62,161 nt of DNA, taken from Candidatus Omnitrophota bacterium. Lineage in GTDB: Bacteria; Omnitrophota; Gorgyraeia; 2-02-FULL-51-18. Positions 46,338 to 62,161 of the stretch are shown piece after piece. A model generated the notes under the pieces. The model was not told where the DNA came from. It worked only from the letters and a program-made list of their open reading frames with translations, and ran no database searches. How positions within the stretch are numbered: the first letter of the stretch is position 1; each line of letters begins with the position of its first letter. The stretch covers positions 1-62,161 of the forward strand of contig JACPAX010000014.1 in the NCBI GenBank assembly GCA_016180585.1, written 5' to 3'. A program made the translations under genes and the position numbers.

Positions 46338-46718
46338 ATGTATGAGATTAGCATCGAGGATGAATTTTCTGCGGCACATTTTTTGAAGCTCTACGACGGA
46401 AGCTGGGAGCGCCGGCACGGGCACAACTGGAAGGTCTCCGTGGTTGTCCGGTCCGACACGCTTGATTCGATGGAGGTGGTGGTGGATTTCGAGGCCCTGA
46501 AGCCGAATTTGAAAAAAGTCCTCTCCGAGTTCGCGCACATCTGCTTCAACGATCACCCGGAATTCAAAGGCGGCAGGAAAAACCCGTCCACGGAAAACAT
46601 CGCCAAGCTGATTCACGATCGGCTGAAGGTAAACTTTAAATCCAAAACCGCGCGGCTCGTCAAGGTCACCGTCTGCGAGACCCCCGACGCCTGTGCAAGC
46701 TATTATCCGAACCGGTGA
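46338..46718 (+). CDS. queD: 6-carboxy-5,6,7,8-tetrahydropterin synthase
   Basis: FSAAHFL...HGHNWKV and CETP blocks of the PTPS/QueD family. Confidence 0.9.
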   Translation: MYEISIEDEFSAAHFLKLYDGSWERRHGHNWKVSVVVRSDTLDSMEVVVDFEALKPNLKKVLSEFAHICFNDHPEFKGGRKNPSTENIAKLIHDRLKVNFKSKTARLVKVTVCETPDACASYYPNR

Positions 46719-46839: not shown

Positions 46840-47562
46840 TTGAAATTATCGGATAAAAATCTTGAGACGGAGGTCAGTGAAGTTTTTTCTTCGCTGCAGG
46901 GGGAGGGGCCGTATCTCGGCGTGAAGCAGATTTTCGTGCGTTTCGGCCGCTGCAACATGCGCTGCGGCTACTGCGACGAGATCGAGAAGATGAAGGAGGA
47001 GAGCTTCTCGGTTTATCCCCTGGAAAAACTTATCGGCGAAGTGGACCGGCTTGAGGCGGAGAAGGGCCCGCACCATTCGGTCTCGCTCACCGGCGGCGAG
47101 CCGCTCTTTTATGCGTGTTTTCTGGGAAATTTCCTGCCGAGGCTCAAGGAAAAAGGGCTCTCGGCGTATCTCGAGACCAACGGGACGCTCCCGCGCGAGC
47201 TGGCGCAGGTGATCAAGTGGTGCGACGTGATCGCGATGGACATGAAGCCCGCCTCGAGCGCCGGAGACCGCGCGTTTCTGAAGGAGCACGAGGCCTTTCT
47301 CAAAGTCGCGATCCAAAAAGAGCTCTTCGTGAAGGTCGTGATCACGCCGGACACCTTGGCCCGGGAGATAGGGGAGTGCGTGGACCTTGTGGCGGCCGTG
47401 AACCCCAAAATCCCCTTTATCTTCCAGCCGCTCAGCGAGCCCTTCGGCATCAACGGCCGGTCCCTCGCGCTGATCGAAAAAGAGCTTTTCGCCATCGCCA
47501 GCCAAAAACTCCTCGACGTCCGCGTCATCCCCCAGATGCACAAAATCTGGGGTGTACGGTAA
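46840..47562 (+). CDS. queE: 7-carboxy-7-deazaguanine synthase (radical SAM)
   Basis: EVFSSLQGEGPYLGVKQIFVRFGRCNMRCGYCD and SLTGGEPL. TTG start; adjacent to queD. Confidence 0.88.
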   Translation: MKLSDKNLETEVSEVFSSLQGEGPYLGVKQIFVRFGRCNMRCGYCDEIEKMKEESFSVYPLEKLIGEVDRLEAEKGPHHSVSLTGGEPLFYACFLGNFLPRLKEKGLSAYLETNGTLPRELAQVIKWCDVIAMDMKPASSAGDRAFLKEHEAFLKVAIQKELFVKVVITPDTLAREIGECVDLVAAVNPKIPFIFQPLSEPFGINGRSLALIEKELFAIASQKLLDVRVIPQMHKIWGVR

Positions 47563-47620
47563 GCTAAGTCGTTTGTTTTCAATAGGCAAGCCCTCCTTGA
47601 AAGTGTCGAAAAACAGCTTC

Positions 47621-47641
47621 GGATACAACTGGGATACAGTC
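47621..47641 (+). repeat. Direct repeat, left copy (putative attL core)
   Basis: GGATACAACTGGGATACAGTC. It contains GGATACA twice and matches 59484-59504 at 20 of 21 positions. Confidence 0.6.
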
Positions 47642-47755
47642 CAAAACACTCTAGCCATTTTTCCGAACCCGTAAAGCTTATATATAATCCCTAAGATTTT
47701 CGTGCCAAGGGCTTGCTCTTGTCCTCTAGGTACTGTCGGCAACAAGGAGGTGCCG

Positions 47756-47995
47756 ATGAAATATCCAATTATCGTTATTGGGAATGTTCGATATGCGCCG
47801 TATGCGCTAATGGAGATAAGGGGAGACGCGGTCGTATCATTCAAACCACTCAACAGACTGAATGAACCGCAAGAACAGTCAATAAAACATTGGTTTAAAA
47901 AGCTGATAGCGTGTGTGAAAGGTAGTGTGCCTAAGAGGAGGACATTACCATGTCACGAAAGCACTTTAGAGCACTTGCGGAACAGATTGCGTTAA
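47756..47995 (+). CDS. Hypothetical protein (79 aa)
   Basis: ATG preceded by AAGGAGG at good spacing. I recognise no family. Overlaps the next small gene. Confidence 0.4.
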   Translation: MKYPIIVIGNVRYAPYALMEIRGDAVVSFKPLNRLNEPQEQSIKHWFKKLIACVKGSVPKRRTLPCHESTLEHLRNRLR

Positions 47996-48111
47996 TACCT
48001 GATCTATCTATGAGGATAACTGCGGCTTATGCCGTAGCAAAGGCGTGTCACCGGCTCAACCCACGCTTTAAGCTGGAAAGATTTCTCCGCGCTTGTTGCG
48101 CTGAGGAATAG
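47950..48111 (+). CDS. Small hypothetical protein (53 aa), absent from the supplied ORF track
   Basis: My translation is MSRKHFRALAEQIALIPDLSMRITAAYAVAKACHRLNPRFKLERFLRACCAEE*. AGGAGG lies 8 nt upstream. It recalls small phage/plasmid proteins ending ...NP.F...RF...C. Confidence 0.5.
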   Translation: MSRKHFRALAEQIALIPDLSMRITAAYAVAKACHRLNPRFKLERFLRACCAEE

Positions 48112-48322
48112 GTAGAAAAAATCTCAAGCGACGACCCCCCCTTGAGGCCCCCACAGATACCCCTACCCACCATCACCTCCATAGTAGTTTGACGCGAAGT
48201 CGGGCAGCCCAGAAACACGGTTTTGCCCATGTTTTTAGATGGTTGGAAGGATGCGTGGATTGCACTGCCAAAAAGCGGTATAATGTCCAAAAAATTAAGA
48301 CGAACTAAGAGTTAGGTAAATT

Positions 48323-49516
48323 ATGTCTTGTCTTGCTTTCTTTCCCTGGTTGGAAGTCAAAAGCCGCATCCAGTTTGGCGATTTAGCACTTACTCCCTTT
48401 GAGCGCAATAAGTCGCCTTTTGGAGCCGGTTCTCCAGATCAAAGCACTTGCGACGGTGTTCTTGAGCCATACCATGATGGAAAGCACCCTGTTCAAAAAG
48501 CAACTTTGCTTGAGCACGGTGGCGTTTTTTTTGGCGATGTCAGCCAGGAAGCGGCGGGGGAATACTTTGTTTTCCGGGATATTGTGGCCTGCTCATCTCT
48601 CGGGAAGCGCGAGTTTTTTGGTTTTGGCTTTCCCTACTGGAACTCTGGTCATTTTGAAATGGTGATACAAAACTTTGTCGATCCCCACGGCTCTATCGCT
48701 GTAACATCCCGTCGTCGCGATGGAAAGACCACCCATCACATGACCCGCGAGGACTATTTTTTTCGTCGGCCCTTTCAAGTTAGCGCAAACGTAGGTATCG
48801 ATTTTGATCGAAATCTAGTAACGGCTTTGTTGGCCGCGAAAGACAAGAGCCCCGTCTGGCACGAATACTATGACGCGATCTCTAACTTTAATCAGGCTAA
48901 TACCGACAGCGATCAAAGGACGGAAGCCGAGGAAGCCGTCATGTTGATAGGGGCGTTTCAACGTTTATTACGTTGCACTGCTAGCGGGGAGGATGACCTT
49001 ACGGCTCGGCTCACAAAGGTGCTCAACCCGTTCATCCACTTAGAAATAGAAAATTGTGAAAAAATCCAGAACTTCACCCACTACAAGGTCAAGGCATCAA
49101 CCGTAACCGAAGCATGGATTTCAGATTTTTTTAAGCTTAGAGGTGAAAACGCTCATGGTAAACGGCTACCCCGCGGCCCGCTTGTCTGGGCCAGTATGGA
49201 GCATCTCTTGTTAGCATCGTTTCTTTTCCCGCACTTATTGAAACTTCAATTGCAGGAGGACGGTTATTATAAGCTGACGGACGATGATGAAGCTGATTTG
49301 ATGGCGTTTGAGCCTTTATTGGCTGCGAAGTGCTTAGAAAAAACTGCAGATGGAAAGGGCTGGATATGGAGCGAGGTCTTTCGTAAGGTTCGGTCTGACT
49401 ATCTATTAAAAAAATGTATGGAGCCCATCCTGGCCGAGTTTTTCAAACAAAAGCTCGACGGGCCTGACGTTGTAGCTGAAAACCCTAAACCTGAGCCGAC
49501 CAAGGGGGCTGACTAA
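48323..49516 (+). CDS. Hypothetical protein with Rx4H (HEPN-like) motif
   Basis: 397 aa with no family recognised. FFKLRGENAHGK (nt 49139-49156) fits the HEPN Rx4-6H signature. Its stop overlaps the next ATG (TAATG). Confidence 0.7.
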   Translation: MSCLAFFPWLEVKSRIQFGDLALTPFERNKSPFGAGSPDQSTCDGVLEPYHDGKHPVQKATLLEHGGVFFGDVSQEAAGEYFVFRDIVACSSLGKREFFGFGFPYWNSGHFEMVIQNFVDPHGSIAVTSRRRDGKTTHHMTREDYFFRRPFQVSANVGIDFDRNLVTALLAAKDKSPVWHEYYDAISNFNQANTDSDQRTEAEEAVMLIGAFQRLLRCTASGEDDLTARLTKVLNPFIHLEIENCEKIQNFTHYKVKASTVTEAWISDFFKLRGENAHGKRLPRGPLVWASMEHLLLASFLFPHLLKLQLQEDGYYKLTDDDEADLMAFEPLLAAKCLEKTADGKGWIWSEVFRKVRSDYLLKKCMEPILAEFFKQKLDGPDVVAENPKPEPTKGAD

Positions 49517-52500
49517 TGCCGCTCACAGGTGGACCAGCCGATAAGTTGGGGAACCGTTACGAACTCTGGTGGACGGTTCTTCAATTTGTTCGTATGCTTC
49601 ATGGAAAAGCAGAGAGAATACGTATTGAAGACCCAAACGTAACAAAAGCGGAGTTTGTGATAGTTCATAATGGGCACCGGGAACTTCATCAAGCCAAGCG
49701 AAGTCACCAGAGCGGCAAATGGAGCAATGCTTCTCTCGCTAGCTCCGATATGCAACTTCTGCAGGGTATGTTCGACCAGCTTTTGGGGAATGATAATCGA
49801 TTCGTTTTCGTGTCCGGCAGTGCTGCTGAGGAGCTAAAAGAGCTTGCGCACCGTGCCGAAAAGGCAGAAACCGTGGAGGAATTCGAATCAAAGTTTCTTG
49901 AGGCAGAGATTCAGAAGGTTAGGTTTGATACGCTGAAGAAGAAATACTGGAAAAATACTGACACGACAACTGCCTACGAGATTCTACGACGAATCGAGGT
50001 TAAGACGGTTGATGAGAAGAGTCTTGAAGAGCAGGTTCATTGGGGTATTCGAGCTTTATTTCTCGCTGATCCCAACATTGTATGTGCCGAGTTACGATGT
50101 ATTGCAGAAGATTCTATTCATCAGACCATCACGCGCGAAGCACTTATTGAGCGTCTTGCTCAGCGCGGTTTTATGCTGCGTCGTCTCGCTAAGCTTGACT
50201 CGGCCGCAGCCTTGGTTGGTGAAGCTACAGAGCGTTATCTCGCCGTCGTACGAAAGAAACTAATCCGGAAGTCACTGATTCCCCGAGCGGCAACGCAGAC
50301 ACTTCTTGAACAACTTATAGGGGCTGCACATGGACGTGATCTGGCGCTAACTGGTAGAGCAGGTGTTGGCAAAACAGGTTGCGTGATTGAGTTGGTCGAG
50401 GCGCTGCGAGCGCGCAATATCCCCGTCTTGGCTTTTCGACTCGACCGTCTCAAACTAGTTTCAACAACAGTGGAGTTAGGGCAACAGCTTGGGCTTGAGG
50501 AATCACCTGCGCTCGTGCTTGCCGCTATGGCTGCAGGCCGGGAAGCTGTCTTAGTAGTCGATCAGCTTGACGCGGTGAGCACTGCTTCGGGGCGAAGTTC
50601 AGATTTCCTTGAAGCCGTGGAGGGAATCTTGGCTGAAACTCGTGGCTTGCGCGACAAACTAAAGCTGCACGTTGTTGTTGTTTGTAGAGCATTTGATTGG
50701 GAAAACGACCATAGGTTACGTCGACTGCTTTCAGAGCAACAAACCAAAGTGGAAGTTGTCGAGTTTTCGATTGATGAAGTGAAAGCCGTTCTTTCCGCCG
50801 ATGGTTTCCGTACGGAACTTCTCCAAAAGAATCAGTTAGAGTTGCTCAGACTTCCACAAAACCTCTCGTTGTTTCTTGAAGCAAGTTTTGCGAAAGCTGG
50901 AGCGCCAACGTTCAACACTGCAAAAGAACTTTTTGACCGGTATTGGGACGAGAAACGCCGAGCAGTCAAAGCGCGGGCTAATTATTCACAAGAACAGTGG
51001 GCGGAAGTGATTGGGTTCATTTGTGAAAAAATGACCCAAACTCAACAGCTTTTCGCCTCGCGCGAGAGTCTTGATCAATTTGATAGCGATTACATCGCGG
51101 CAATGGCTTCGGAAGGCGTACTAACTTTCGAGAATCAGAGATATGGATTTGGTCATGAAAGTTTTTTCGATTATTGCTTTGCGCGTGCTTTCATCCCTAA
51201 AGAAAAACCGCTGACCGAATTTCTCACCGCTTCTGAGCAGCACCTCTTCAGGCGGGCGCAAGTGAGGCAAGTTCTTACCTACCTACGGGATGCTGACCGA
51301 GATCGCTACTGCAAGGAGCTACGTGAACTTTTAGCAGACAGCCGAATTCGTGCTCATATCAAAGACCTTGCCATCGCTTTGGTCGTAGCCGCGCCTGATC
51401 CTGGCGATGATGAATGGGCTGTACTAGAGCCGTGGTTGAATTCCAACCTTGCGATTTTTGAGAATAGCCAGAAGAGCCCAGACAAGCTTTCTTCCATGGT
51501 GTGGCAACATTTCTTTCCTTCGGTCTCTTGGTTTTATTTTATTGAAAGGCGAGGCTTCATTAAGAACTGGCTTGGATCTGGAAAGAAGAGCCTCATCGAT
51601 ATGGCAGTGAATTACCTGCGACTTCACCAGCGACATGCAGCCGATACGGTGGCAGAATTGCTAGAACCCTATATTGGGCAGACTGGTGATTGGCCGCAAC
51701 GACTTCGTTTCGTGATGCAATGGGCCGATTTGGGGGACAGTCGCAGATTTTTTGATTTATTTTTGCGGCTCATTGATGATGGAACTCTCGACAATGCACG
51801 CGGGCCGATAGCAGTCAATAGTACATTCTGGAGCATGTTTCATGGACTGGCAAAGACACAGGCCGCATGGGTAGCGGAAATTCTTGCACATTGGCTTCGC
51901 AGAAGGTTTGTGTTGGTTTCACATCCGACGGTAGAAGGTGAGGAGCCGAATTGGCACGACCTTTTCAACAACGACGAATTTGGAAAAGATCATTTACATG
52001 ATGCTGCAACCAAAGCACCGGGAGCGTTCGTTGATCACGTTCTCCCCGTTGTCTTAGAAATTTCAGATGCCACCATCTATAGTGAAAATAATTCACCGAA
52101 GCGAGATGCCGTCTGGTCGATAGCGCTATTCGATAATGAGTATGAATCGGCTGAAGATGCTTGCAGAAATACGCTTGCCACCGCATTGCAGACGGTTGCA
52201 AAAGATAAGCCAAAAAAACTCAGCGATGTTGTAGCCGAACTTCAACGTCGTGATACTTATATGGCAAACTTCCTCCTTTTAAATCTCTTCGCTGCTGGAG
52301 CGGCGCATTTTGCCGATCCAGCTGTTACCCTTTTGTGTGACCAGCCGTGGCGTTTTTACTGTGGATTTTCAGAAAGCCCTCACTGGATTGCGATGCAGCT
52401 TATTAAGGCAGTTGTTTCAATCTGTTCGCCGGAAAACCGGACGAAATTGGAAAAAACGATCATGAGTTATTCTCCGGATTACGAACGCAGCGCCAAAGGG

Positions 52501-54060
52501 CACAAAATCGCGGGAAGAGCCTCCTTTGCGTTGCTGTCCGCTATTACACCAGAATATCGCAGTGGTCACGCTCAAGCACGCTACAAAGAGCTCGAACGAA
52601 AGTTCGGGAAACCAGACGGCCCGCCACTTGGAGTTCATGGTGGGTTCGTTGGATCCCCAATTAAGAAAGAAGCAGCCGAACAAATGACTGATGAACAGTG
52701 GTTGAAGGCAATTGCAAAATATGATTCAGAAGAACGTGAGGATCGTTGGAATGATTTCTTGAAGGGTGGCGCCAGAGAACTTGCCAGGATGCTGCGTGAT
52801 TTTGTTCACAATGAACCGGAACGTTTTTCTCAACTGAGTTTACGATTTCCCGATGGTACCAATCCAGTCTACATTGATCGAGTGATCGACGGGTTAAAAG
52901 GTACCAATGTGTCTACCAAGCTGAAGCTCGCCGTCTGTCGTAAAGCTTATAGTGAATCTCGTGAGGAATGTGGAAGGGCAATTTCCGACCTACTTGGAGG
53001 CATCCAGGAATCGCTACCGGAAGACGCTGTTCAGATGCTCGATTGGATAGCTACTCAGCACTCTGATCCAGAAAAAGATTTATGGAACGTAGAAGCCACA
53101 GCAGGTAAACCCTACTATGGTGGAGATATCCACAGCCACGGTATCAATACGACACGTGGGAGAGCCGCCGAAGCAATTCACAATCTTATCCGCACCGATG
53201 TTGGATATGTCGCACGTTTTGGATCTACACTCAACCACCTTGTTAGTGATGAGAACCTTTCAGTACGCTCGTGCGCTGCTTCGACGTTGCTCGCTGTCGC
53301 TCGACATAACACACCTTTGGCGTTAGAGCTTTTCAAGAAGCTCGCCGAAGCAGACGACCGTTTACTCGCAACTCCTTATGTGGACCGCTTTATCTACTAC
53401 AGCTTGCACAAGAATTTCATCCAAGTCCGGCCTTATGTGGAGCGGATGCTGCGGTCAAAAGAACCTAAAGTGAGTGAAGTTGGCGCTCGGCTCGCCGGTG
53501 TGGCGGCTCTCTATCACGAAGATGCTGCAGATTTGGTAAATAAAGCAATGTCCGGAAGTCCTTCGCAGCGACTCGGGGTTGTCCAGGTAGCGTCAGCCAA
53601 TATCGCTCGTGCAGATTGTCGAACGTGGTGCGAAAATTGTTTATTGGTACTTTTTAATGATGACGATAACAAGGTCCGTCGCGAAGCCACATCATGTTTT
53701 CATCATCTTAAGAGCGAACCTTTGGAGAACTACGAGAACCTTATCAGGGCATTTTGTGACAGCTTGGCCTACCAAGAGGGTTCATTTCCAGTTCTTCACG
53801 TGCTGGAGGATTCGTTGCTCCGCTTGCCGGGTATCACACATGTCGTGTGCGAGAAGTTTCTCATGCGTTTTAGTGATGAAGCAAAAGACATCCAAACTTC
53901 TCGCGCCGGGGATGTTCATACTGTTGCCAAACTGATATTCCGAACTTATCATCAACATCAACGCGATCAATGGGCTCCTCGATGTCTCGACCTAATTGAC
54001 AAGATGTGCCTAGAAGGCATCCGCGATACAAGAAGTGAACTGGATGAATACGAACGATGA
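49516..54060 (+). CDS. Large STAND-type P-loop NTPase with an N-terminal nuclease-like domain and C-terminal HEAT-like repeats
   Basis: N-terminus has IRIED...HQAK (D...QxK). Walker A is GRAGVGKT (50353-50376) and Walker B is VLVVDQLD (50548-50571). It also has a NACHT-like FGHESFFDYCFARAF and ~900 aa of helical repeats. Confidence 0.85.
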   Translation: MPLTGGPADKLGNRYELWWTVLQFVRMLHGKAERIRIEDPNVTKAEFVIVHNGHRELHQAKRSHQSGKWSNASLASSDMQLLQGMFDQLLGNDNRFVFVSGSAAEELKELAHRAEKAETVEEFESKFLEAEIQKVRFDTLKKKYWKNTDTTTAYEILRRIEVKTVDEKSLEEQVHWGIRALFLADPNIVCAELRCIAEDSIHQTITREALIERLAQRGFMLRRLAKLDSAAALVGEATERYLAVVRKKLIRKSLIPRAATQTLLEQLIGAAHGRDLALTGRAGVGKTGCVIELVEALRARNIPVLAFRLDRLKLVSTTVELGQQLGLEESPALVLAAMAAGREAVLVVDQLDAVSTASGRSSDFLEAVEGILAETRGLRDKLKLHVVVVCRAFDWENDHRLRRLLSEQQTKVEVVEFSIDEVKAVLSADGFRTELLQKNQLELLRLPQNLSLFLEASFAKAGAPTFNTAKELFDRYWDEKRRAVKARANYSQEQWAEVIGFICEKMTQTQQLFASRESLDQFDSDYIAAMASEGVLTFENQRYGFGHESFFDYCFARAFIPKEKPLTEFLTASEQHLFRRAQVRQVLTYLRDADRDRYCKELRELLADSRIRAHIKDLAIALVVAAPDPGDDEWAVLEPWLNSNLAIFENSQKSPDKLSSMVWQHFFPSVSWFYFIERRGFIKNWLGSGKKSLIDMAVNYLRLHQRHAADTVAELLEPYIGQTGDWPQRLRFVMQWADLGDSRRFFDLFLRLIDDGTLDNARGPIAVNSTFWSMFHGLAKTQAAWVAEILAHWLRRRFVLVSHPTVEGEEPNWHDLFNNDEFGKDHLHDAATKAPGAFVDHVLPVVLEISDATIYSENNSPKRDAVWSIALFDNEYESAEDACRNTLATALQTVAKDKPKKLSDVVAELQRRDTYMANFLLLNLFAAGAAHFADPAVTLLCDQPWRFYCGFSESPHWIAMQLIKAVVSICSPENRTKLEKTIMSYSPDYERSAKGHKIAGRASFALLSAITPEYRSGHAQARYKELERKFGKPDGPPLGVHGGFVGSPIKKEAAEQMTDEQWLKAIAKYDSEEREDRWNDFLKGGARELARMLRDFVHNEPERFSQLSLRFPDGTNPVYIDRVIDGLKGTNVSTKLKLAVCRKAYSESREECGRAISDLLGGIQESLPEDAVQMLDWIATQHSDPEKDLWNVEATAGKPYYGGDIHSHGINTTRGRAAEAIHNLIRTDVGYVARFGSTLNHLVSDENLSVRSCAASTLLAVARHNTPLALELFKKLAEADDRLLATPYVDRFIYYSLHKNFIQVRPYVERMLRSKEPKVSEVGARLAGVAALYHEDAADLVNKAMSGSPSQRLGVVQVASANIARADCRTWCENCLLVLFNDDDNKVRREATSCFHHLKSEPLENYENLIRAFCDSLAYQEGSFPVLHVLEDSLLRLPGITHVVCEKFLMRFSDEAKDIQTSRAGDVHTVAKLIFRTYHQHQRDQWAPRCLDLIDKMCLEGIRDTRSELDEYER

Positions 54061-54083
54061 TAAAATTTTAGAAAGGTATTTGG

Positions 54084-54308
54084 CTAGTCTTTGAACTGCA
54101 AAAGTTTCCAGGCAGGAACTTTAAAAGCTTTGGCGAGCTTTTCTATACTTGATAGGCAAATATCGTCAGGCTTCCGACTTTCCAAGTTTTGCACGTGTTT
54201 ATAATCCAACCCTGAAAGTTCTGACAATTCGAGTTGAGTTAAGCCCTTCTTAGTCCGTAGACTTTTTATACGTTTTGCCAACTTAATGTTGATTTGGGAG
54301 GTGGCCAT
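54084..54308 (-). CDS. XRE-family HTH transcriptional regulator
   Basis: KRIKSLRTKKGLTQLELSELSGLDYKHVQNLESRK is a classic HTH_3 pattern. Confidence 0.85.
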   Translation of the reverse strand: MATSQINIKLAKRIKSLRTKKGLTQLELSELSGLDYKHVQNLESRKPDDICLSSIEKLAKAFKVPAWKLLQFKD

Positions 54309-54390
54309 TAAGGGCCATTATGTGGTAATTCTTCTCTTGTATAAACCGGCTATAGACGGTGTATAATTAAGTTATTAAGAGGAGCCGCCC

Positions 54391-54780
54391 ATGAAAAAAC
54401 TGGTATCTTTATTTTTCCTTTCCCTGATTGTCGCTTTATCAATTTCTGACACAGCCTTAGCTGAATATGTTCGTGGACACTATCGAAAGAATGGTTCCTA
54501 CGTCAGCGGTTATCACCGATCAAACTCCAATAGCACCGTTACTGATAATTATTCATTCAAAGGTAATGTCAATCCTTATACTGGCGCGATAGGAACGAAT
54601 TATTATCGGAATAGCCCTTCGAGTCCTTATTTTGGGTCTAGTCCGTCAAGAGGCTGGAGCAACCCGGCTACGACCTTTTCGGGCAATTCATCAACGGGGG
54701 TTTGGGAAAGTCCCTCAACTGGGGTATGGAGTAGTCCTTCAACGGGCATCGGAAGCGGATCTTCCAGTTGGGACGATTGA
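54391..54780 (+). CDS. Small secreted Ser/Gly/Tyr-rich protein
   Basis: Good SD (AGAGGAG), signal peptide ...DTALA-EY, YVRGHYRKNGSYVSGYHRSN motif and a repetitive STGVW tail. Confidence 0.6.
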   Translation: MKKLVSLFFLSLIVALSISDTALAEYVRGHYRKNGSYVSGYHRSNSNSTVTDNYSFKGNVNPYTGAIGTNYYRNSPSSPYFGSSPSRGWSNPATTFSGNSSTGVWESPSTGVWSSPSTGIGSGSSSWDD

Positions 54781-54799
54781 GGTCAAAGGTAGGGTAGGT

Positions 54800-55327
54800 A
54801 TGGGGATGCAGAAAAACAAAGTCAGACTTTTTACTCTCTTAATGGCAGTACTTTGCTGTAGTGGCTGTGCCACTGGTTCTTATTACTACAAGTACCAAGG
54901 GGCTGCCGGTGGTTTTAGTGAGGTTAAGATCCAAGATGACTTATTCAAGGTAGCGTATTCTGAGAATCAATTTGTTAGTCCTGAAACAGCAGAGGATTTT
55001 GCATTACTTCGATCGGCGGATGTCGCAATTCAGAACGGCTATAAATACTTCGTGATTCTCGAACAAAAATCTGATGTGCAAAAGACGTCAGTAGATATGC
55101 CCAGCTACTCGACCACGATGGCGTCGGGCTCGATATATCCAGCGACCTATTCAGGAAGCATGATCGGCAACACCATCAATTACGGTGGCGGCACGTATGT
55201 TTATTCTAGGCCGAGTACCTCTAATATGATCAAGTGCTTTAAAGAAAAGCCTGAGAATTTACCCACGATCATTTATGACGCAGTGCAGGTCAGAGATAGT
55301 ATAAAAACCAAGCACTCTATTAGATGA
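54800..55327 (+). CDS. Putative lipoprotein
   Basis: MGMQKNKVRLFTLLMAVLCCSGCATG is a signal peptide with a lipobox-like SGC. ATG 54800 chosen inside the longer ORF. Confidence 0.6.
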   Translation: MGMQKNKVRLFTLLMAVLCCSGCATGSYYYKYQGAAGGFSEVKIQDDLFKVAYSENQFVSPETAEDFALLRSADVAIQNGYKYFVILEQKSDVQKTSVDMPSYSTTMASGSIYPATYSGSMIGNTINYGGGTYVYSRPSTSNMIKCFKEKPENLPTIIYDAVQVRDSIKTKHSIR

Positions 55328-55800
55328 ATCGCTTAGTTAAAGTTCTCACCATTGCGTTAGTTTTTTCAGCCCTCTATTCTTCTTTCGATATGGCTGAGAG
55401 TACCAGTGTTACGAAAGAATATCTCAAGAGAATTACAGAAGATAAACGCAAAAGCCGAGAGGCGATGGCGCAATTAGGGGATAAGGCGGCGCTCATGGAG
55501 TTACAGCACCGGCAGGACCTCGAACTCCAACAGCGCCAATTCGATCATGAAAAAGATTTGATGTATCAGAAAAAAATTGCCGATCAACAGGAGTTTAATG
55601 CGCATCACACTCGGTGCATGGGCGCATTGGTGCGACGACATCCAGAAATGTTTGACGATGAGGGAGGATATTTATCAGACAGCCCAAAAGGAAGAATTTG
55701 GGAACGCGTAGCTGTGGAGCATCCCGAGTACGCTTCCCAAATTGGCGGACTTTGCATGGCGATGGAAGAAATGGAGCGGATTCTCCGTGATGAAATATAA
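55324..55800 (+). CDS. Hypothetical signal-anchored protein
   Basis: N-terminal hydrophobic segment and a helical charged body. Its start overlaps the upstream stop (ATGA). Confidence 0.55.
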   Translation: MNRLVKVLTIALVFSALYSSFDMAESTSVTKEYLKRITEDKRKSREAMAQLGDKAALMELQHRQDLELQQRQFDHEKDLMYQKKIADQQEFNAHHTRCMGALVRRHPEMFDDEGGYLSDSPKGRIWERVAVEHPEYASQIGGLCMAMEEMERILRDEI

Positions 55801-55851
55801 TCTAGAACACATCAAAATATCTTTTTACTGGCTATTTTTGGTGCTCGTAAC

Positions 55852-55879
55852 TTGACCACAGAGAATCGTGTGATATAAT
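55852..55879 (+). promoter_or_regulatory. sigma70-like promoter with extended -10 (TTGACC-16-TGaTATAAT)
   Basis: TTGACC at 55852-55857, TG at 55871-55872 and TATAAT at 55874-55879. No ORF follows for ~290 nt. Confidence 0.5.
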
Positions 55880-56109
55880 AAAAATTGAGAGAGACAATCT
55901 GTTAGGTTGTGGTGCTCTCAAAATTGCCGAAGTAGCCAGTTGTAAACGGCTGGTCAACGATGTTGAGCCAAGCAATTCAATGTCGGCCCGAATAGCGAAA
56001 GTAGGGCGAGCGGACGCGCTTAAATGCTAGGCATAATTGAGCTGTCTTTAACGCAATAAAGATGAGCCCAAGCAGGTGAAGTATACCCTTGTTTGGGCCG
56101 TTTCATTTT

Positions 56110-56142
56110 AGGGCCTGCGGGGTTTCCTGCGGGCCTATTTTT
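56110..56142 (+). terminator. Rho-independent terminator-like hairpin
   Basis: AGGGCCTGCGGG-gttt-CCTGCGGGCCT folds into about 10 pairs (one mismatch, one bulge, one G:U) and is followed by ATTTTT. Confidence 0.45.
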
Positions 56143-56170
56143 ATTGCATAGAAAAGACAAGGAGAGAAAA

Positions 56171-56398
56171 ATGAGACAGCTCACACCAATTAAAGCTATC
56201 CGTAAGACCTGCCTAGACTGCTGTAGTGGTTCCCCCAAATCTGTAAAGCTTTGCTCTGACACCGAGTGCCCCCTGCATATCTATCGCTTTGGCAAGAACC
56301 CCCGCAGGAAGGGTATCGCTCCGAATAAGCACCTATTCCAGAAAAATCCCACCGTTGTGTCGAGAGATTTCTCAAAAGAAAGGGCTTCCAATGAGTGA
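56171..56398 (+). CDS. Small Cys-rich (zinc-binding) phage/ICE-type protein
   Basis: AAGGAGAG SD. MRQLTPIKAIRKTCLDCCSGSPKSVKLCSDTECPLHIYRFGKNP recalls a small family common in mobile elements. Confidence 0.55.
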   Translation: MRQLTPIKAIRKTCLDCCSGSPKSVKLCSDTECPLHIYRFGKNPRRKGIAPNKHLFQKNPTVVSRDFSKERASNE

Positions 56399-56618
56399 GT
56401 CACAGTATTCAACCCAGAACCTGTATGAGGCTGCTTTCTGCCTCTGCAAGGGATTCAAACTGGCTGGCAAGCGACGAGAAGGAGCTAAGGTCGTTATTCT
56501 CTTTGAAGGGGAAAACGTACAACAAGAGGCTCTTGGTTTCTATAACGGGTCCAAGGTGCCCGCTAAGGACTACGCAGATTCGTATAGAACCTTAAAGGAT
56601 TTCATTTTTGAGAGATAG
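56391..56618 (+). CDS. DUF5659-like protein
   Basis: YSTQNLYEAAFCLCKGFKLAGKRREGAKVVILFEG fits the DUF5659 pattern as I remember it. The start overlaps the upstream stop. Confidence 0.6.
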   Translation: MSESQYSTQNLYEAAFCLCKGFKLAGKRREGAKVVILFEGENVQQEALGFYNGSKVPAKDYADSYRTLKDFIFER

Positions 56619-56641
56619 GAGAAAAAGATGAGGATAAAAAA

Positions 56642-56986
56642 ATGGGCCGCCATAAAAGCTACCGACTTCCACCATTTGTCCCACTAGATAAACGAATGCT
56701 TCTTCACTCTCCGGAGTGGAGAGATTTAGGATCGTCTGCCAAAGTTCTGTATATGCAGATTAAAGCCAAACACACCGGCAGTAACAATGGACAAATACGC
56801 CTTTATTACAGCGAGCTAAAAGGCATGATGGCCGACAAGACGATAAGCAGAGCATTTAAGCAACTGGAAGCCAAGGGTTGGATCTGCCGCGAGAAAATCG
56901 GGGGAGAGCATCGCTGGGTAAATGATATACGTTTGACCGGTAAATACGACGCGACTGTGAAAGATTGTGTTTGGTTGCGGCAATAA
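56642..56986 (+). CDS. Winged-helix-like protein of mobile-element backbone
   Basis: ...SSAKVLYMQIKAKHTGSNNGQIRLYYSELKG...ISRAFKQLEAKGWI is a wHTH-like pattern. Function unknown. Confidence 0.5.
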   Translation: MGRHKSYRLPPFVPLDKRMLLHSPEWRDLGSSAKVLYMQIKAKHTGSNNGQIRLYYSELKGMMADKTISRAFKQLEAKGWICREKIGGEHRWVNDIRLTGKYDATVKDCVWLRQ

Positions 56987-57171
56987 AAAACAGCGCTATA
57001 TTTTACAGTGTCAGTGTGCACTTTTTACGGTGTCGGCGATGATTGGAAATGCTCCACTCAGTAAATAATGCTGAGTCGTGCTATAGAGCGATCAAAATCG
57101 ACCCGTTAAAAAATACAGTCTTTATATATTATGCCATCCATAGGTGCTTAATTTAACAAAGGGGGAGTGTC

Positions 57172-57360
57172 ATGATAAGTAGGGCACGTTTGATACGTCA
57201 AAAAGTAGAAATCGTAAGTCAAGATCCGTTCGTGGTGAGGTGCTTGGGGTGTGGTCTGGCTTGGCAACCTTTGCTTAGAAGCGGAGGGCGATTACCAAAG
57301 GGGTTCTCCGAACGCCCAAACGGTTGTGTGGGAAACGAATGTACAGAAATTAACCGATAA
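57172..57360 (+). CDS. Small hypothetical protein with CxxC...CxxxxC
   Basis: GGGGGAG SD at good spacing; 62 aa; RCLGCG and NGCVGNEC. Confidence 0.4.
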   Translation: MISRARLIRQKVEIVSQDPFVVRCLGCGLAWQPLLRSGGRLPKGFSERPNGCVGNECTEINR

Positions 57361-57649
57361 GTGGGTAAAAAAGGGGTGGTGGGGGCGATAAGGGGCGGCC
57401 GTACGACACGCTTCTGTACAGATTTGGAGAAACATACGCTGAAAACGTACAGAGCACCGCCGTACGTCGGTCAGGAACGAGGCGTACATCCACTCGACTG
57501 AAAATAGCGTTTACCGTATAGCGAAATGAGGCAAAAAAGACCGCTGGCGTAGGCGCTATTTAGCGGGTTTAGGGGTTTGAGCTTGGAGGAAATAAGGGGT
57601 CATTCCGAAGATTTTTTGACGTGTAGCACAGTTTCAGGAGGATAGGTCA

Positions 57650-57844
57650 ATGGATGAAAATAATCGGTTATTATCGTGCAAGGATCTGGCGAAATTCTTA
57701 GGCGTATCGTCTTGGACGATTTACGGATGGGTCAGCCAGAAAAGGATTCCGCACGTCAAGATCGGCCGACTTGTACGTTTTGATGAGGCTGAGATTTTGG
57801 GGTGGTTGGAAAAACAAAGGGTAAAGCCGTTTCATAGCATTTAG
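57650..57844 (+). CDS. Excisionase/AlpA-type HTH (HTH_17) DNA-binding protein
   Basis: LSCKDLAKFLGVSSWTIYGWVSQKRIPHVKIGRLVRFDEAEILGWL is the classic excisionase-family pattern. Confidence 0.8.
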   Translation: MDENNRLLSCKDLAKFLGVSSWTIYGWVSQKRIPHVKIGRLVRFDEAEILGWLEKQRVKPFHSI

Positions 57845-58117
57845 GAAGCAATACCGAGGTACAAATGAAAGAAGTTATTCAAAGCCTATTTTAGTTTATC
57901 GTATCGCCCGGTTAGTACCGGCCAACGAGCGGCCGGAATAGCGGGGATTAGCGTCTCCGTTCCGTTGATGCAATAAGTTCTGACTTTGGTCTGCCTTAGC
58001 GGGTAGTCAAAGCGCACCGGGGATAAACAAGCCGAGCTGAGTCGCGCCAGTAGGGGCCTAACCTGGAACAAATCCGGGCTAGGCATCGTGTGCCTACCCG
58101 GTTGAGGGCGGGCAAAC

Positions 58118-58342
58118 ATGGACGGTCAAGACAATCAAAAGTGGGTAGACGCGAAAAAGTTGGCTGAGATCTTGGGGGTGAAACAGGGGTGGATACGGCA
58201 AAACATGAAAATAATACCGCACAAAAAGTTGCGGCGGCTCGTTCGTTTCAATCCTGTCGAAGTTATGGAGCGCTTTAAGCCGAAGGATGAAGCCCAAACA
58301 AAGGTAGATTCTCTTAGCAAGGGGGCGAGAATATGGGCTTAA
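58118..58342 (+). CDS. Second excisionase-like HTH protein
   Basis: VDAKKLAEILGVKQGWIRQNMKIIPHKKLRRLVRFNPVEVMERF is a diverged HTH_17 pattern. Overlaps the integrase start. Confidence 0.65.
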   Translation: MDGQDNQKWVDAKKLAEILGVKQGWIRQNMKIIPHKKLRRLVRFNPVEVMERFKPKDEAQTKVDSLSKGARIWA

Positions 58343-59538
58343 TCAGGCGCTGTTCGGTTTGCAGAAAGCAGGGCGCTCGGTATAGTGCGCAAGGCTTAAA
58401 ATGCACCCACAAAGAAGCGACCTGGGCCGTAAAATTTCTTGTCGGCAGCAAACAGATTTTTAAGACCTTTGGGCCGAACAAGAGGGAGGCGGAGCGTTTT
58501 CTGACCAAAATCAAATCAGAGATTGCCTCCGGTGGTACGTTTGAACAAATAAAGCCTATTCTCTTCAAAGAGCTCGCCGAGAAGTGGCTTAATAACCATC
58601 GTCAGAGCGCCAATCCGAAACCTGGGACAATTTGGGCGTATGATTCTCGGCTCACTCACCACATATTGCCACTCATGGGTCATAAGGTCGTTAATCAGAT
58701 CACCGCTTACGATATTGAGACCATAAAACAAAAAGTCCGTGAAAAACTAAGGGCTCGATCAACTAACCAAGTTCTGGTTGAGATAGGCACGATTCTAAAA
58801 TATGGATGGACGCTCGGGTTTTGTAAATCCAATCCCGCGCAGTTGGTCAAAAAGTACGGCATCGAAAGGGGGCCGGGCCGAACTCTCACGAAAGAGGAGG
58901 CCGCAATTCTGCTGAGATACGCGACCGAGCCGTATCGAACGATTTTATTTGCTCTACTCTGCACTGGCGCAAGGATCGGAGAAATATCGGCTCTAAAATG
59001 GACGGACGTGGATTTTAAGAACAATCTGATCACGATTCAGCGCAATGTGTTTCACGCGCCGAAAGGGAAGTACGGCATGGGAGACAAGTCGTGGATATTT
59101 GGAACCCCGAAATCGAAGGAATCAACGCGCAAGGTCTTTATGATTCCAGCGCTCAAAACCGCGCTGGTCAGGCATTGTGAGCAGAGCGGAGGCAATCAGC
59201 ATGGCCTTGTATTCTCTACGAAGTTCGGCGAGCCCTATGATCGCTCAACGTTAAGGGTGAAACTTGTCTCTATTACGAAAGCCGCCGGGTTGAAACATGT
59301 TCGACTGCATGACCTGCGGCACACAAACGCGACATGGCTGCTGGCGGAGGGGGTCAATCTCGCCTATGTCTCAAAGCATCTCGGGCACTCAGGAGTTGCG
59401 ATTACGGGCGATACCTACCATCACGTTCTCCCTAAAGAACACGAGCGAGGAATGAAACTCTTGGACGGCATCTTTCCAATTTGGGATACAATTGGGATAC
59501 AGTCGCTGCCTCCACCAGACGAAATCAAACGAAAGTAG
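58333..59538 (+). CDS. Tyrosine recombinase / phage-type integrase
   Basis: ARIGEISALKWTDVDF (Arg), HDLRHTNATWLL (HxxR) and LGHSGVAITGDTYHHV (His...Tyr). Confidence 0.92.
   Translation: MGLIRRCSVCRKQGARYSAQGLKCTHKEATWAVKFLVGSKQIFKTFGPNKREAERFLTKIKSEIASGGTFEQIKPILFKELAEKWLNNHRQSANPKPGTIWAYDSRLTHHILPLMGHKVVNQITAYDIETIKQKVREKLRARSTNQVLVEIGTILKYGWTLGFCKSNPAQLVKKYGIERGPGRTLTKEEAAILLRYATEPYRTILFALLCTGARIGEISALKWTDVDFKNNLITIQRNVFHAPKGKYGMGDKSWIFGTPKSKESTRKVFMIPALKTALVRHCEQSGGNQHGLVFSTKFGEPYDRSTLRVKLVSITKAAGLKHVRLHDLRHTNATWLLAEGVNLAYVSKHLGHSGVAITGDTYHHVLPKEHERGMKLLDGIFPIWDTIGIQSLPPPDEIKRK
59484..59504 (+). repeat. Direct repeat, right copy (putative attR core), inside the integrase 3' end
   Basis: GGATACAATTGGGATACAGTC, 20/21 identical to 47621-47641. 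Confidence 0.6.
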
Positions 59539-59739
59539 CCGAATGGACTTTACGAAGTTTGATTGTCGTAACCTCTGTAGACTCGTATAATAATGCAACT
59601 ATGCGAATCCCCACGCAAATAGGCGAAAAAGAAAAATTACCCCAAGAGCACAAGCACAAAATCTGGGGTCAGTGAACGGTTTTATTTTCCCTGTGATAAA
59701 ATAATAAAAAAGGTTTAAATAAATCAAGGAGGAGACCCG

Positions 59740-60306
59740 ATGAGCGGATCCGGAATGAAGGTCCTGGGGGTTTTGGCGGGGGCGGCGCTTTGTTTGGCGT
59801 TTTCAGGCATGACGACCAAGGAGGCCTGGGCCGCGACGGCCGCGGAGATCGACGCCCGCGTGGACAGGACTCTCGAGCGCTTTTACGGCGAGGCGAGGGA
59901 CGGGAGGAAACTCGTCCAGGACGCCAAGGGCGTGCTTGTTTTTCCGAGCGTTTATAAGGCAGGGCTTGGAATCGGCGGCTCGTTTGGCGAAGGCGCTCTG
60001 AGGATCGGGGGCAAGACCGTCGATTATTACAGCACCGTCATGGGTTCGATCGGCCTTCAAATCGGGGTCGAGAAAAAATCGATCCTCCTTCTTTTCATGG
60101 AGAAGGACGTGCTCGACCGTCTTCGCTCAAGCTCCAACTGGAAGGTCGGCGCGGACGCCTCCGTGACTTTAGTGACCGTCGGCGCGGACGGGTCCATCGA
60201 TACCCAAAAGACCAATCAGCCCATCCTCGGGTTCGTGATCGGGCAAAAGGGCCTGATGTACAACCTGACCCTGGAAGGCACCAAGTTCACCAAGCTGAAA
60301 AAATAG
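59740..60306 (+). CDS. SYLF (Ysc84/DUF500) domain protein, secreted
   Basis: Signal peptide, GVLVFPSVYKAGLGIGGSFGEGAL and WKVGADASVTLVTVGADGS blocks. High-GC codon usage like the core genome. Confidence 0.8.
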   Translation: MSGSGMKVLGVLAGAALCLAFSGMTTKEAWAATAAEIDARVDRTLERFYGEARDGRKLVQDAKGVLVFPSVYKAGLGIGGSFGEGALRIGGKTVDYYSTVMGSIGLQIGVEKKSILLLFMEKDVLDRLRSSSNWKVGADASVTLVTVGADGSIDTQKTNQPILGFVIGQKGLMYNLTLEGTKFTKLKK

Positions 60307-60329: not shown

Positions 60330-60374
60330 TTGACATTGGGAGCCCGGTAGGGTAATATTCCTAACAGGAATATT
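60330..60374 (+). promoter_or_regulatory. Promoter (TTGACA-17-TAATAT) overlapped by a perfect 9-bp inverted repeat
   Basis: TTGACA at 60330-60335 and TAATAT at 60353-60358. The repeat AATATTCCT-aac-AGGAATATT spans 60354-60374. Confidence 0.55.
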
Positions 60375-60401
60375 TAGTTCAATGGGTGTGGTGTCCATAT
60401 A

Positions 60402-60679
60402 ATGGCTGATTGGCAATTAGAGCACACGGACAAGTATTTGAGGGATTATGCTTATTTTAAAAAAAAGCGACCCGATGAATTGGCCGCCGTGTTAGACAAC
60501 TTAGACACCTACTTCAAAGCATTAAGCAAATTGAAAGATTGTACGTCTATCCGGATACCAAGATGACGGTATTGCACGTTTTAGCGATAGGGGATAAAAC
60601 CGCGCAAAAAAGCGATATCGAGGCGTGTCGCGGTTTTGTTAAAAAACTCAAGGAGGGGCGGGATGCGAAAACTGTATAA
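60402..60679 (+). pseudogene. Degraded HigB/Gp49-like (RelE superfamily) toxin gene
   Basis: Frame 1 gives MADWQLEHTDKYLRDYAYFKKKRPDELAAVLDNLDTYFKALSKLKD... and stops at 60566. Another frame from 60539 gives LYVYPDTKMTVLHVLAIGDKTAQKSDIEACRGFVKKL. Confidence 0.6.
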
Positions 60680-61223
60680 AAGCGTCAAGGAAATGGCGCG
60701 CGATATTTCCAAGGACGCTTCGTTTGAAAGTAGGCTGTCCAAAGAGATAGATGAAAAACGGATAGCGAAGTTCCTTTTTTATTTACGTTGCAAAAACAAT
60801 CTTACGCAAAAACAGATTGCCGAAAAGATTGGATGCACGCAAAGCAAGGTTTCAAAAATTGAAAGCGCCTACAATCATGAGCTTTCTGTGCAGGATTTGC
60901 TGGATTACGGGAAGGCCATGAATCTCAAGCTTGAACTGGGTTACAGGCACCCGTCGATGCGAATAGTCGACATGATCAAGTATCATGCTTTTAAAATTAA
61001 GCGTTTATTGGGTCAATTGACCGATTTGGCGAAGGATGATAAGGAGATGAATGACGCAATCGCCCGCTTCCACGTGGAGGCTTTTGTCAATATTGAGAAA
61101 ATAATCAAGGGAAGCTTCGTGAACTTGGCGATTTTTAGGAAGAAACTGCCCATGGAAAAAGCGAGCGTGCATATTTCTGCTCCCATAGAAAGTTCCAACA
61201 TCCAAAAAGTGGCAAGCACCTAA
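60663..61223 (+). CDS. XRE-type HTH protein (HigA-like antitoxin candidate)
   Basis: AAGGAGGGG SD and an HTH at LTQKQIAEKIGCTQSKVSKIESAY. Overlaps the end of the toxin remnant. Confidence 0.7.
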   Translation: MRKLYKSVKEMARDISKDASFESRLSKEIDEKRIAKFLFYLRCKNNLTQKQIAEKIGCTQSKVSKIESAYNHELSVQDLLDYGKAMNLKLELGYRHPSMRIVDMIKYHAFKIKRLLGQLTDLAKDDKEMNDAIARFHVEAFVNIEKIIKGSFVNLAIFRKKLPMEKASVHISAPIESSNIQKVAST

Positions 61224-61416
61224 AAGACACAACAGGCGGGTCCGCTTAAAAGCGCTTAAGATTTGCGAAGTATAAATAGTATTTGATACGAATGCTTGGA
61301 AAATATTTTTCATATTTTTTCGCCCGATCTCTTGTCATTCTGGGATTCATCGTGTAGACTTCCCCCATAACACGAAAAGGTCCCATGGCACGGGTTTCTT
61401 CCCAACGAGTTTATCG

Positions 61417-62161
61417 ATGAAAGAAAATCGCCCCATCCTGAGGGCTGTCGCTTTCGTTCTCCTTCAGGTTTTTTTTCTCCAGGAGCTCGGCTTCGCCGCT
61501 CCGGATATCAGGCCCGTTTCCTGGGATCCAAGGGGCGATGACAAGGCCTGGGCCAGGTCCGTGCTTCCGAATATTCCGGCGTCCGTGGCCACCCTCGAAG
61601 ACGCCTGGAAAGCCGCTCGTTCCCCACGACCCACGACGATTATTCTCCTCCAAGACGCCCACACCAATCCCTCGGGACAATTTAATCTCTCGAAAACGCT
61701 GGATCGTCTTCTTGCGCACGACAAGAACCTCAAGCACGTCTTTGTAGAGGCCGGACTGGACGACAACTCGCTCTCCTCTTTCCGGCAATACGGCGCCCGG
61801 GACCAGAGAAAACAAATCGCCGAGCGGTATCTTCGATCGGGAGAGCTCCACGGCGAGGAGTACCTGGACCTCACCTCGGACCGCGATTTCACCATCTGGG
61901 GAGTGGAAGACATCGATCTCTACCGGAAGGCCCTCGGGGACTACAGGGCCGTGGCCCGGGACCGGGAAAGATTCCAGGCCTACCTCTCGAAGATCCGGAC
62001 GACGATCGAGGTCTTGAAGCCCCGGATCTACGGCCCCGCTCTCTCGGCCTTCGTCGGCCATTATGAAAAATACGGGAAAGGCGAGCTTCCCGTCACGGAG
62101 TACTTTGAGATCCTCCATGCCTTTGCCGGGCGGACAGGCGCGGCGATCTCCCGGTACCCGT
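61417..62161 (+). CDS. Hypothetical secreted protein, 5' partial view (runs off the window); absent from the ORF track
   Basis: My translation is MKENRPILRAVAFVLLQVFFLQELGFAAPDIRPVSWDP...ILLQDAHTNPSGQFNLSKTL..., open to the last base with core-like codon usage. The listed minus-strand ORF is its antisense. Confidence 0.6.
   Translation, partial: MKENRPILRAVAFVLLQVFFLQELGFAAPDIRPVSWDPRGDDKAWARSVLPNIPASVATLEDAWKAARSPRPTTIILLQDAHTNPSGQFNLSKTLDRLLAHDKNLKHVFVEAGLDDNSLSSFRQYGARDQRKQIAERYLRSGELHGEEYLDLTSDRDFTIWGVEDIDLYRKALGDYRAVARDRERFQAYLSKIRTTIEVLKPRIYGPALSAFVGHYEKYGKGELPVTEYFEILHAFAGRTGAAISRYP

Follow-up and report, generated by a model that had tools for sequence, protein, structure and literature searches.

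Inverted half-sites around a short spacer are the standard core layout of tyrosine recombinases, and the core and arm sites of phage lambda provide the main comparison for the locus described here. Phage 21 and e14 insert into the 3' end of the protein-coding gene icd and restore it, as ICESt1 and ICESt3 do with fda. According to the Islander study, islands in tRNA genes (tDNA islands) carry the 3' end of their target, by which the gene is kept intact, and the displaced fragment marks the far border (PMC4383910). Cis-mobilizable elements (CIMEs) and the accretion of elements that are integrative and conjugative (ICEs) or integrative and mobilizable (IMEs) at one attachment (att) site have been described (PMC7563491). 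In phage Mx8, attP lies inside the gene of the integrase IntP, and integration gives this gene a new 3' end (PMC6070905); in SSV-type integrases, the crossover falls inside the integrase open reading frame (ORF), and the gene is altered or split when the element integrates (PMC7253208). The present analysis concerns contig JACPAX010000014.1 of a Candidatus Omnitrophota bacterium, of which a stretch of 62,161 nucleotides (nt), here called the window, was analyzed. An earlier note on this DNA had proposed an integrative island that lies between queE and a SYLF gene and whose right end carries a tyrosine integrase gene; this proposal is supported. The island is very probably a lambda-type integrase element inserted into the 3' end of queE, with its core at GCACAAA and a pair of 21-nt repeats (21-mers) serving as the P- and P'-arm sites.

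The locus resembles the lambda Int/attP system in its tyrosine integrase with an extra N-terminal domain, its inverted core half-sites around a 7-bp spacer, its direct-repeat sites in the two arms, near -150 and +70, its attP of about 275 to 300 bp, and its small helix-turn-helix (HTH) excisionase candidate. Unlike in lambda, the integrase N-terminal domain contains an invariant CxxC…CxH pattern, the P-arm sites fall within integrase coding sequence, integration occurs in the 3' end of a protein-coding gene, and the arm sites are recognized here from sequence alone. As with the icd, fda, and tDNA insertions, the element carries the 3' end of its target, and a displaced fragment is found at the far border; it differs from them in its target, queE, and in its host, which belongs to an uncultured lineage. 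No paper describing queE as an att site was found, the full-text search being uninformative. In mechanism, the island is a conventional lambda-type island. Its target, the parts of its att sites, and its integrase gene are located in the window as follows.

46840-47562, plus strand: queE-like radical SAM gene, the integration target (PF04055, E 6e-12); the codons from 47554 on (…VR-stop) are island supplied
47530-47552, plus strand: attL core, read directly as CCCCAGAT (47530-47537), spacer GCACAAA (47538-47544), and ATCTGGGG (47545-47552)
47538-47553, plus strand: left identity block, at attL, exact 16-nt direct repeat GCACAAAATCTGGGGT
47554-47620, plus strand: P'-arm spacer, which includes the new queE tail, GTACGGTAA, together with about 60 nt of conserved sequence
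47621-47641, plus strand: P'-arm tandem motif (left 21-mer), two GGATACA at an 11-bp period, candidate arm-type sites for the integrase
58333-59538, plus strand: tyrosine integrase gene, 401 amino acids (aa) (PF00589, E 3.6e-24, and PF22022), wholly inside the island
59484-59504, plus strand: P-arm tandem motif (right 21-mer), inside the integrase 3' end
59505-59653, plus strand: P-arm spacer, about 150 nt, conserved at the DNA level, with a promoter-like TTGTCG-17-TATAAT (59563-59591) aimed at the core
59654-59669, plus strand: right identity block, at attR, exact 16-nt direct repeat GCACAAAATCTGGGGT
59670-59739, plus strand: B' flank, with the decayed original queE tail CAGTGAACGG (the empty site L046 has AGTGCGGTAA) and then the SYLF leader

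Two pairs of direct repeats are nested at the island ends in the order 16-mer, 21-mer … 21-mer, 16-mer; a core at the 16-mer, with 21-mers in the P' and P arms, would be expected to produce this order. The outer pair, recovered by a repeat scan, consists of the only two copies of GCACAAAATCTGGGGT in the whole genome assembly (1.57 Mb), one per island end. The left copy lies within the final codons of queE (…PQMHKIWGVR-stop), and the right copy, 115 nt past the integrase stop, reads …HKIWGQ-stop and resembles a displaced gene tail. The site in queE, encoded by the codons PQMHKIWG, is a perfect 8-7-8 inverted repeat, CCCCAGAT-GCACAAA-ATCTGGGG, and the identity between attL and attR starts exactly at the first base of its spacer, 47538. 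GCACAAA is thus the predicted overlap region where strand exchange would occur, and the exact cleavage points are likewise predicted. Judged from these repeats, the island is 12,116 bp long, with borders at 47538/47554 and 59653/59669, and its target is coding, namely, the queE 3' end. The earlier note had recognized a real island but had missed the outer 16-mer; its extent of about 11.9 kb (47621-59504) is corrected accordingly, and its intergenic target gives way to a core in the last codons of queE.

The inner pair, GGATACAA(C/T)TGGGATACAGTC, was described correctly in the earlier note: the copies at 47621-47641 and 59484-59504 are identical at 20 of 21 positions (22 of 24 if extended), and each contains GGATACA twice in tandem, at a period of 11 bp. 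Only these two copies occur in the window, no further copy was found in the whole genome assembly (1.57 Mb, 94 contigs), and none of 100 shuffles of the window matched. Exact GGATACA heptamers number five in the 62-kb window, four of them within the two 21-mers. The shift in composition and codon usage reported earlier is also borne out: the GC content is 0.473 in the island versus 0.585 in the left flank, and the GC content at third codon positions (GC3) is 0.45 to 0.56 in island genes versus 0.74 to 0.79 in queD, queE, and the SYLF gene. The region between the 21-mers is compositionally foreign.

The empty sites used for comparison all come from relatives. In the groundwater contig L046, whose SYLF protein is 86% identical to that of the window, queE ends …CAGATGCACAAAATCTGGGGAGTGCGGTAA (TAA) and the ATG of the SYLF gene follows 25 nt later; this site contains neither the 21-mer nor the preceding block of about 60 nt. 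Adjacency of queE and the SYLF gene had been expected together with a single 21-mer, and L046 has the adjacency but no 21-mer. Nine further queE loci of relatives in which no island block follows queE also lack the 21-mer. Contig L047 encodes a SYLF protein identical to that of L046 but differs upstream, where it carries a metallophosphatase-like ORF (L047 1-240), and matches L046 only from about TGGG(G/A)AGTGCGGTAA, which points to a different element at the same queE 3'-end site in that species. In L069, whose integrase is 69% identical to that of the window, attR matches the empty site downstream of queE in G012 at 140 of 140 positions from GCACAAA onward and at 10 of 40 positions in the 40 nt leftward. 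By this comparison, the junction falls at the left edge of the 7-bp spacer, which in the window is also the first base of the 16-mer.

A circular relative leads to the same core. Contig L074 (8,627 nt), assembled at k=141, overlaps itself by 141 nt at its termini and closes to an 8,486-bp circle that carries DUF5659, RepB-type primase, and HTH_17 genes, an integrase 70% identical to that of the window, and a complete attP. Around the circle, the integrase gene is followed by tandem TGTGCTACCCC (two copies), about 150 nt, the queE-tail mimic CACAAGCATAAGATTTGGGGGGTGCGTTGA, about 60 nt, CATGCTACTCC-TGTGTTACCC, and the cargo. L074 is either an excised or replicating member of the family or a tandem duplication that was collapsed during assembly. 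A crossover at the tandem motif would leave one motif copy, and the circle has two. The 307-nt attP deduced for the window (59470-59653 joined to 47538-47660) aligns with the attP of L074 and with the P-O-P' junctions of L075 and G005 with a single internal gap of 1 nt, in the L075 row.

These data bear on the reading put forward in the earlier note, in which crossover takes place at the 21-mer, the element inserts between genes, and excision provides the integrase with an alternative C terminus, an arrangement comparable to that of Mx8 IntP. The 21-mer repeat is indeed real, unique, and far above chance, and its right copy does lie in the integrase ORF past the catalytic tyrosine (codons 384 to 391; Tyr362). 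The frame after the left copy is correct as sequence, reading GIQS-KTL-stop and closing after three codons, and the attP inside the integrase gene of Mx8 offers a precedent (PMC6070905). Nevertheless, this reading is highly improbable. The empty sites of relatives have no 21-mer, L074 keeps two motif copies around a queE-tail core, and the L069/G012 junction falls at GCACAAA. In addition, the 21-mer is a direct tandem repeat, in contrast to the perfect 8-7-8 palindrome of the queE site, and the queE tail, the 60 nt after it, and the motif travel as one unit in the tandem arrays of relatives. The integrase ORF lies wholly inside the island, the border being at 59654-59669; since the core is 115 nt beyond the integrase stop, the gene would be complete in both the integrated and excised states without any fusion. 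The completeness claimed earlier thus stands, and the exchange of the 3' end on excision does not. Like Mx8 IntP and the SSV-type integrases, the window has att-related DNA overlapping the integrase coding sequence. Unlike in those systems, only the arm sites overlap the gene, the crossover lies 150 nt further on, and the gene is unchanged by integration; the integrase gene of L074 is also intact upstream of the core.

With the core placed at GCACAAA in queE, the tandem motifs lie 149 nt to the left and 67 nt to the right of the 16-nt identity block of attP, and this spacing is nearly free of indels across elements. The block of about 60 nt followed by the tandem motif occurs at a fixed distance after the queE stop in 10 of 20 queE loci of related genera and in G009; nine other loci of relatives have unrelated sequence after the stop, and the block is absent from empty sites. 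On the other arm, the tandem motif, about 150 nt, and the core are conserved in the window, L066, L073, L075, L069, and integrase-less remnants in G021 and G005. In an alignment of 14 P'-arm sites with this block, drawn from more than 10 genera, 12 sequences are gap free, and the two exceptions are remnant arms from which 11 nt within the tandem motif are missing. At least five motif variants (about five in all) were found, namely, GGATACA, GTGATACA, TGATAAC, GGATACC, and TG(C/T)TACYCC, and the two tandem halves change together. Where both arms are readable, they carry the same variant: GGATACA in the window and L073, TGATAAC in L072, and TG(C/T)TACYCC in L074. The P-arm motif is kept 1.4 to 1.9 kb downstream of the integrase gene, outside called genes, in L069 and L073, and the window integrase reads the motif halves in different frames (tGG-GAT-ACA and then GGG-ATA-CAg); constraint thus acts at the DNA level. 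Given this architecture, the 21-mers are probably arm-type integrase sites.

The P-O-P' junctions and integrase-less remnants come from G009, G005, G021, L068, and L075. Tandem arrays at queE in relatives were observed in L027 (G009:C32), L031 (G005:C52; 15222-15530), L030 (G021:C45; 8280-8500), and L068 (about 11100-11500); both arms persist in remnants without an integrase, and arms with unlike motif types adjoin one another. Such arrays and remnants resemble the accretion of elements and the CIMEs described at other att sites. In contrast to the accretion of ICEs and IMEs, no conjugation or mobilization genes were seen, the backbone consisting of DUF5659, primase, excisionase, and integrase genes.

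The promoter-like sequence in the P-arm spacer, detected in a promoter scan, is conserved in at least five related P arms and points out across the core toward the SYLF gene. This outward promoter might restore the expression of the downstream gene, which is cut off from queE by the insertion. A 24-codon ORF that follows it (59602-59676) reads through the core in the queE frame, with a peptide that is not conserved among relatives. It was rejected as a real gene, given that the changes between relatives are mostly nonsynonymous and the frame is kept only by the absence of indels. The P' spacer contains no convincing match to the consensus for integration host factor (IHF).

The integrase is composed of a SAM-like domain, a central domain, and a catalytic domain, and its catalytic residues R214, H326, R329, H352, and Y362 are invariant in 21 homologs. 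A Foldseek search matched it to Tn1549 Int (2e-13) and to full-length lambda Int structures (1e-12), the latter with 363 to 385 aligned columns at 15 to 17% identity. The model has a pLDDT of 79; tail residues 384 to 401, which score below 50 and are predicted to be disordered, include the codons of the right 21-mer (WDTIGIQS). About 75 extra residues stand at the N terminus, for which strands at 2 to 6, 30 to 37, and 40 to 47 and a helix at 50 to 67 are predicted (a three-stranded sheet plus a helix), and the profile match to lambda Int begins at residue 83 of the window integrase, corresponding to lambda Int residue 77. The invariant CxxC…CxH of this domain consists of C7, C10, C24, and H26 (58333-58410, residues 1 to 26), which suggests a zinc-binding element in a putative arm-binding domain. 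A scan of the genome contigs with the integrase found G009 to be the sole close relative, and a scan of metagenome contigs with the integrase alignment gave one close match, L048, itself a truncated integrase. Among IMG/VR viral contigs, no integrase relative was found above 31% identity.

In the mechanism proposed here, the integrase would have recombined the attP of the element with CCCCAGAT-GCACAAA-ATCTGGGG in the host, and the element-borne copy of the queE tail (…GVR-stop) would keep queE intact at attL, leaving the displaced original tail to decay at attR. The attP, of about 275 to 300 bp, would comprise the tandem motif inside the integrase 3' end, about 150 nt, the core, about 67 nt, and the second tandem motif. 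Its predicted junction is …CACAAGCACAAAATCTGGGGTGTACGGTAAGC…, with the two 21-mers about 240 nt apart, and the attB junction predicted after excision is …CCCCAGATGCACAAAATCTGGGGTCAGTGAACGG…. The N-terminal domain of the integrase most likely binds the 21-mers and bridges them to the core as in lambda, and the HTH_17 protein encoded at 57650-57844 is the likely excisionase.

The displaced tail is consistent with this scheme. The queE homologs of relatives all end …HKIWGVR-stop (20 of 20), and L066 and L073 retain GGGGTGTGCG(T/C)T(A/G)(G/A), equivalent to GVR-stop, on the host side of attR; the displaced tail is also intact in L069. In the window, it reads GGGGTCAGTGAACGG at 59670-59690, where a relative's empty site has GGGGAGTGCGGTAA. 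Precise excision from the window would therefore be predicted to leave a queE ending …GQ-stop and not the universal …GVR-stop.

Several observations weigh against the reading of the island as a lambda-type element with 21-mers as integrase arm sites. The N-terminal domain alone gave no significant fold match, the arm-binding domains 3ju0, 3rmp, and 3jtz being retrieved only at E values of 2 to 5, and the Pfam match of the integrase to Arm-DNA-bind_2 is below threshold (E 0.064). The motif inside the integrase 3' end is degenerate in G009 and G004, and P-arm sites are thus not kept in all members. In addition, the decay of the displaced queE tail to GQ-stop hints at long residence or a loss of mobility.

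The lack of a significant match for the N-terminal domain would also suit a variant with the same borders and core, in which binding of the 21-mers falls to an accessory protein, for example, the HTH_17 excisionase, the XRE regulator, or a bending protein of the host. Tandem direct repeats are common excisionase targets, and two HTH_17 proteins, one clear and the other weak, are encoded on the island. This variant is unlikely. The sites occur in both arms and in the same orientation, like the arm-type sites of lambda, in which the Xis sites are confined to one arm. Furthermore, the N-terminal sheet-plus-helix domain of the integrase is placed as in lambda Int, and the motif variants differ in step with the elements and their integrases.

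The decayed tail belongs with a second alternative, in which the island is a fixed, immobile remnant whose att features are relics and whose integrase no longer excises it. The primase/helicase gene of relatives (RepB_primase, VapE, PIF1) is missing from the window island, and decayed, integrase-less relatives are common. Against this, the island has a full-length integrase with no catalytic residue missing, identical 16-nt cores, two perfect tandem motifs, and an intact excisionase candidate. Immobility of the window copy is possible but on balance doubtful.

Comparison with relatives establishes the island borders, the position of the core, and the attP architecture, and a complete attP/attB layout (core, overlap, and both arms) has in this way been obtained by sequence comparison in a phylum without genetics. 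The binding of a protein to the 21-mers is a prediction from this layout. With the borders corrected, the idea of an integrase that swaps its C terminus is removed. The stretch of queE that serves as the target is very conserved, and each of the 20 homologs examined in relatives has it. We tentatively raise the possibility that elements targeting queE form a widespread family, probably in Omnitrophota, that has diversified into about five arm-site motifs while its core stayed fixed on the invariant PQMHKIWG codons. If the choice of arm site sets which integrase excises which element, tandem stacking of several elements at one site without cross-excision would be possible. The covarying arm motifs offer a natural series for studies of arm-site specificity. 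The position of the P-arm sites in the integrase 3' end, beside the outward promoter, suggests that integrase binding could regulate both its own gene and the downstream host gene. The compact integrase-attP pair, of about 1.5 kb and with a 23-bp coding target, may also be of use as an integration tool.

The remaining genes of the island and its flanks are the following.

46338-46718, plus strand: queD, 6-pyruvoyl-tetrahydropterin synthase family (PF01242, E 2.2e-32), host gene upstream of queE
48323-54060, plus strand: cargo pair encoding a 397-aa protein and an overlapping 1,514-aa protein, with weak Pfam matches to AAA-type NTPases and HEAT repeats
54084-54308, minus strand: XRE/Cro-type HTH regulator (PF01381, E 1.6e-7; PHROG transcriptional regulator families)
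54391-55800, plus strand: three small cargo genes, including one for a lipoprotein of the CC0125/CC1285 family (54632-55327; NF047637, E 3.5e-25)
56289-56986, plus strand: element backbone, with a DUF5659 gene (56289-56618) and a small HTH_36/replication-initiator-like gene (56642-56986)
57650-57844, plus strand: candidate excisionase, HTH_17/AlpA-like, 64 aa (PF12728, E 5.9e-14; phrog_66 "excisionase and transcriptional regulator," E 2.3e-12)
59740-60306, plus strand: BPSL1445-family SYLF lipoprotein gene of the host (NF049970, E 1.5e-61), which directly follows queE in the empty site L046

The top NCBIfam matches of the queE gene are QueE models, all below their cutoffs; the gene follows queD, and the order racemase-queD-queE is also found in L072. 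Among the island ORFs tested, no Pfam or PHROG match to a conjugation module (relaxase or type IV secretion system) or to phage structural genes was obtained. The frames of the 397-aa and 1,514-aa cargo proteins overlap by 1 base, and PADLOC and NCBIfam searches with these proteins gave no match. A similar minus-strand HTH gene of the PF01381 family lies upstream of the integrase gene in L066, L068, and L073, and a DUF5659 gene is likewise found upstream of the integrase gene in L066 and L074. Outside the island borders, a second low-GC patch (60330-61500; GC content, 0.44 to 0.46) lies downstream of the SYLF gene and includes a gene for an HTH_3 protein (60636-61223).

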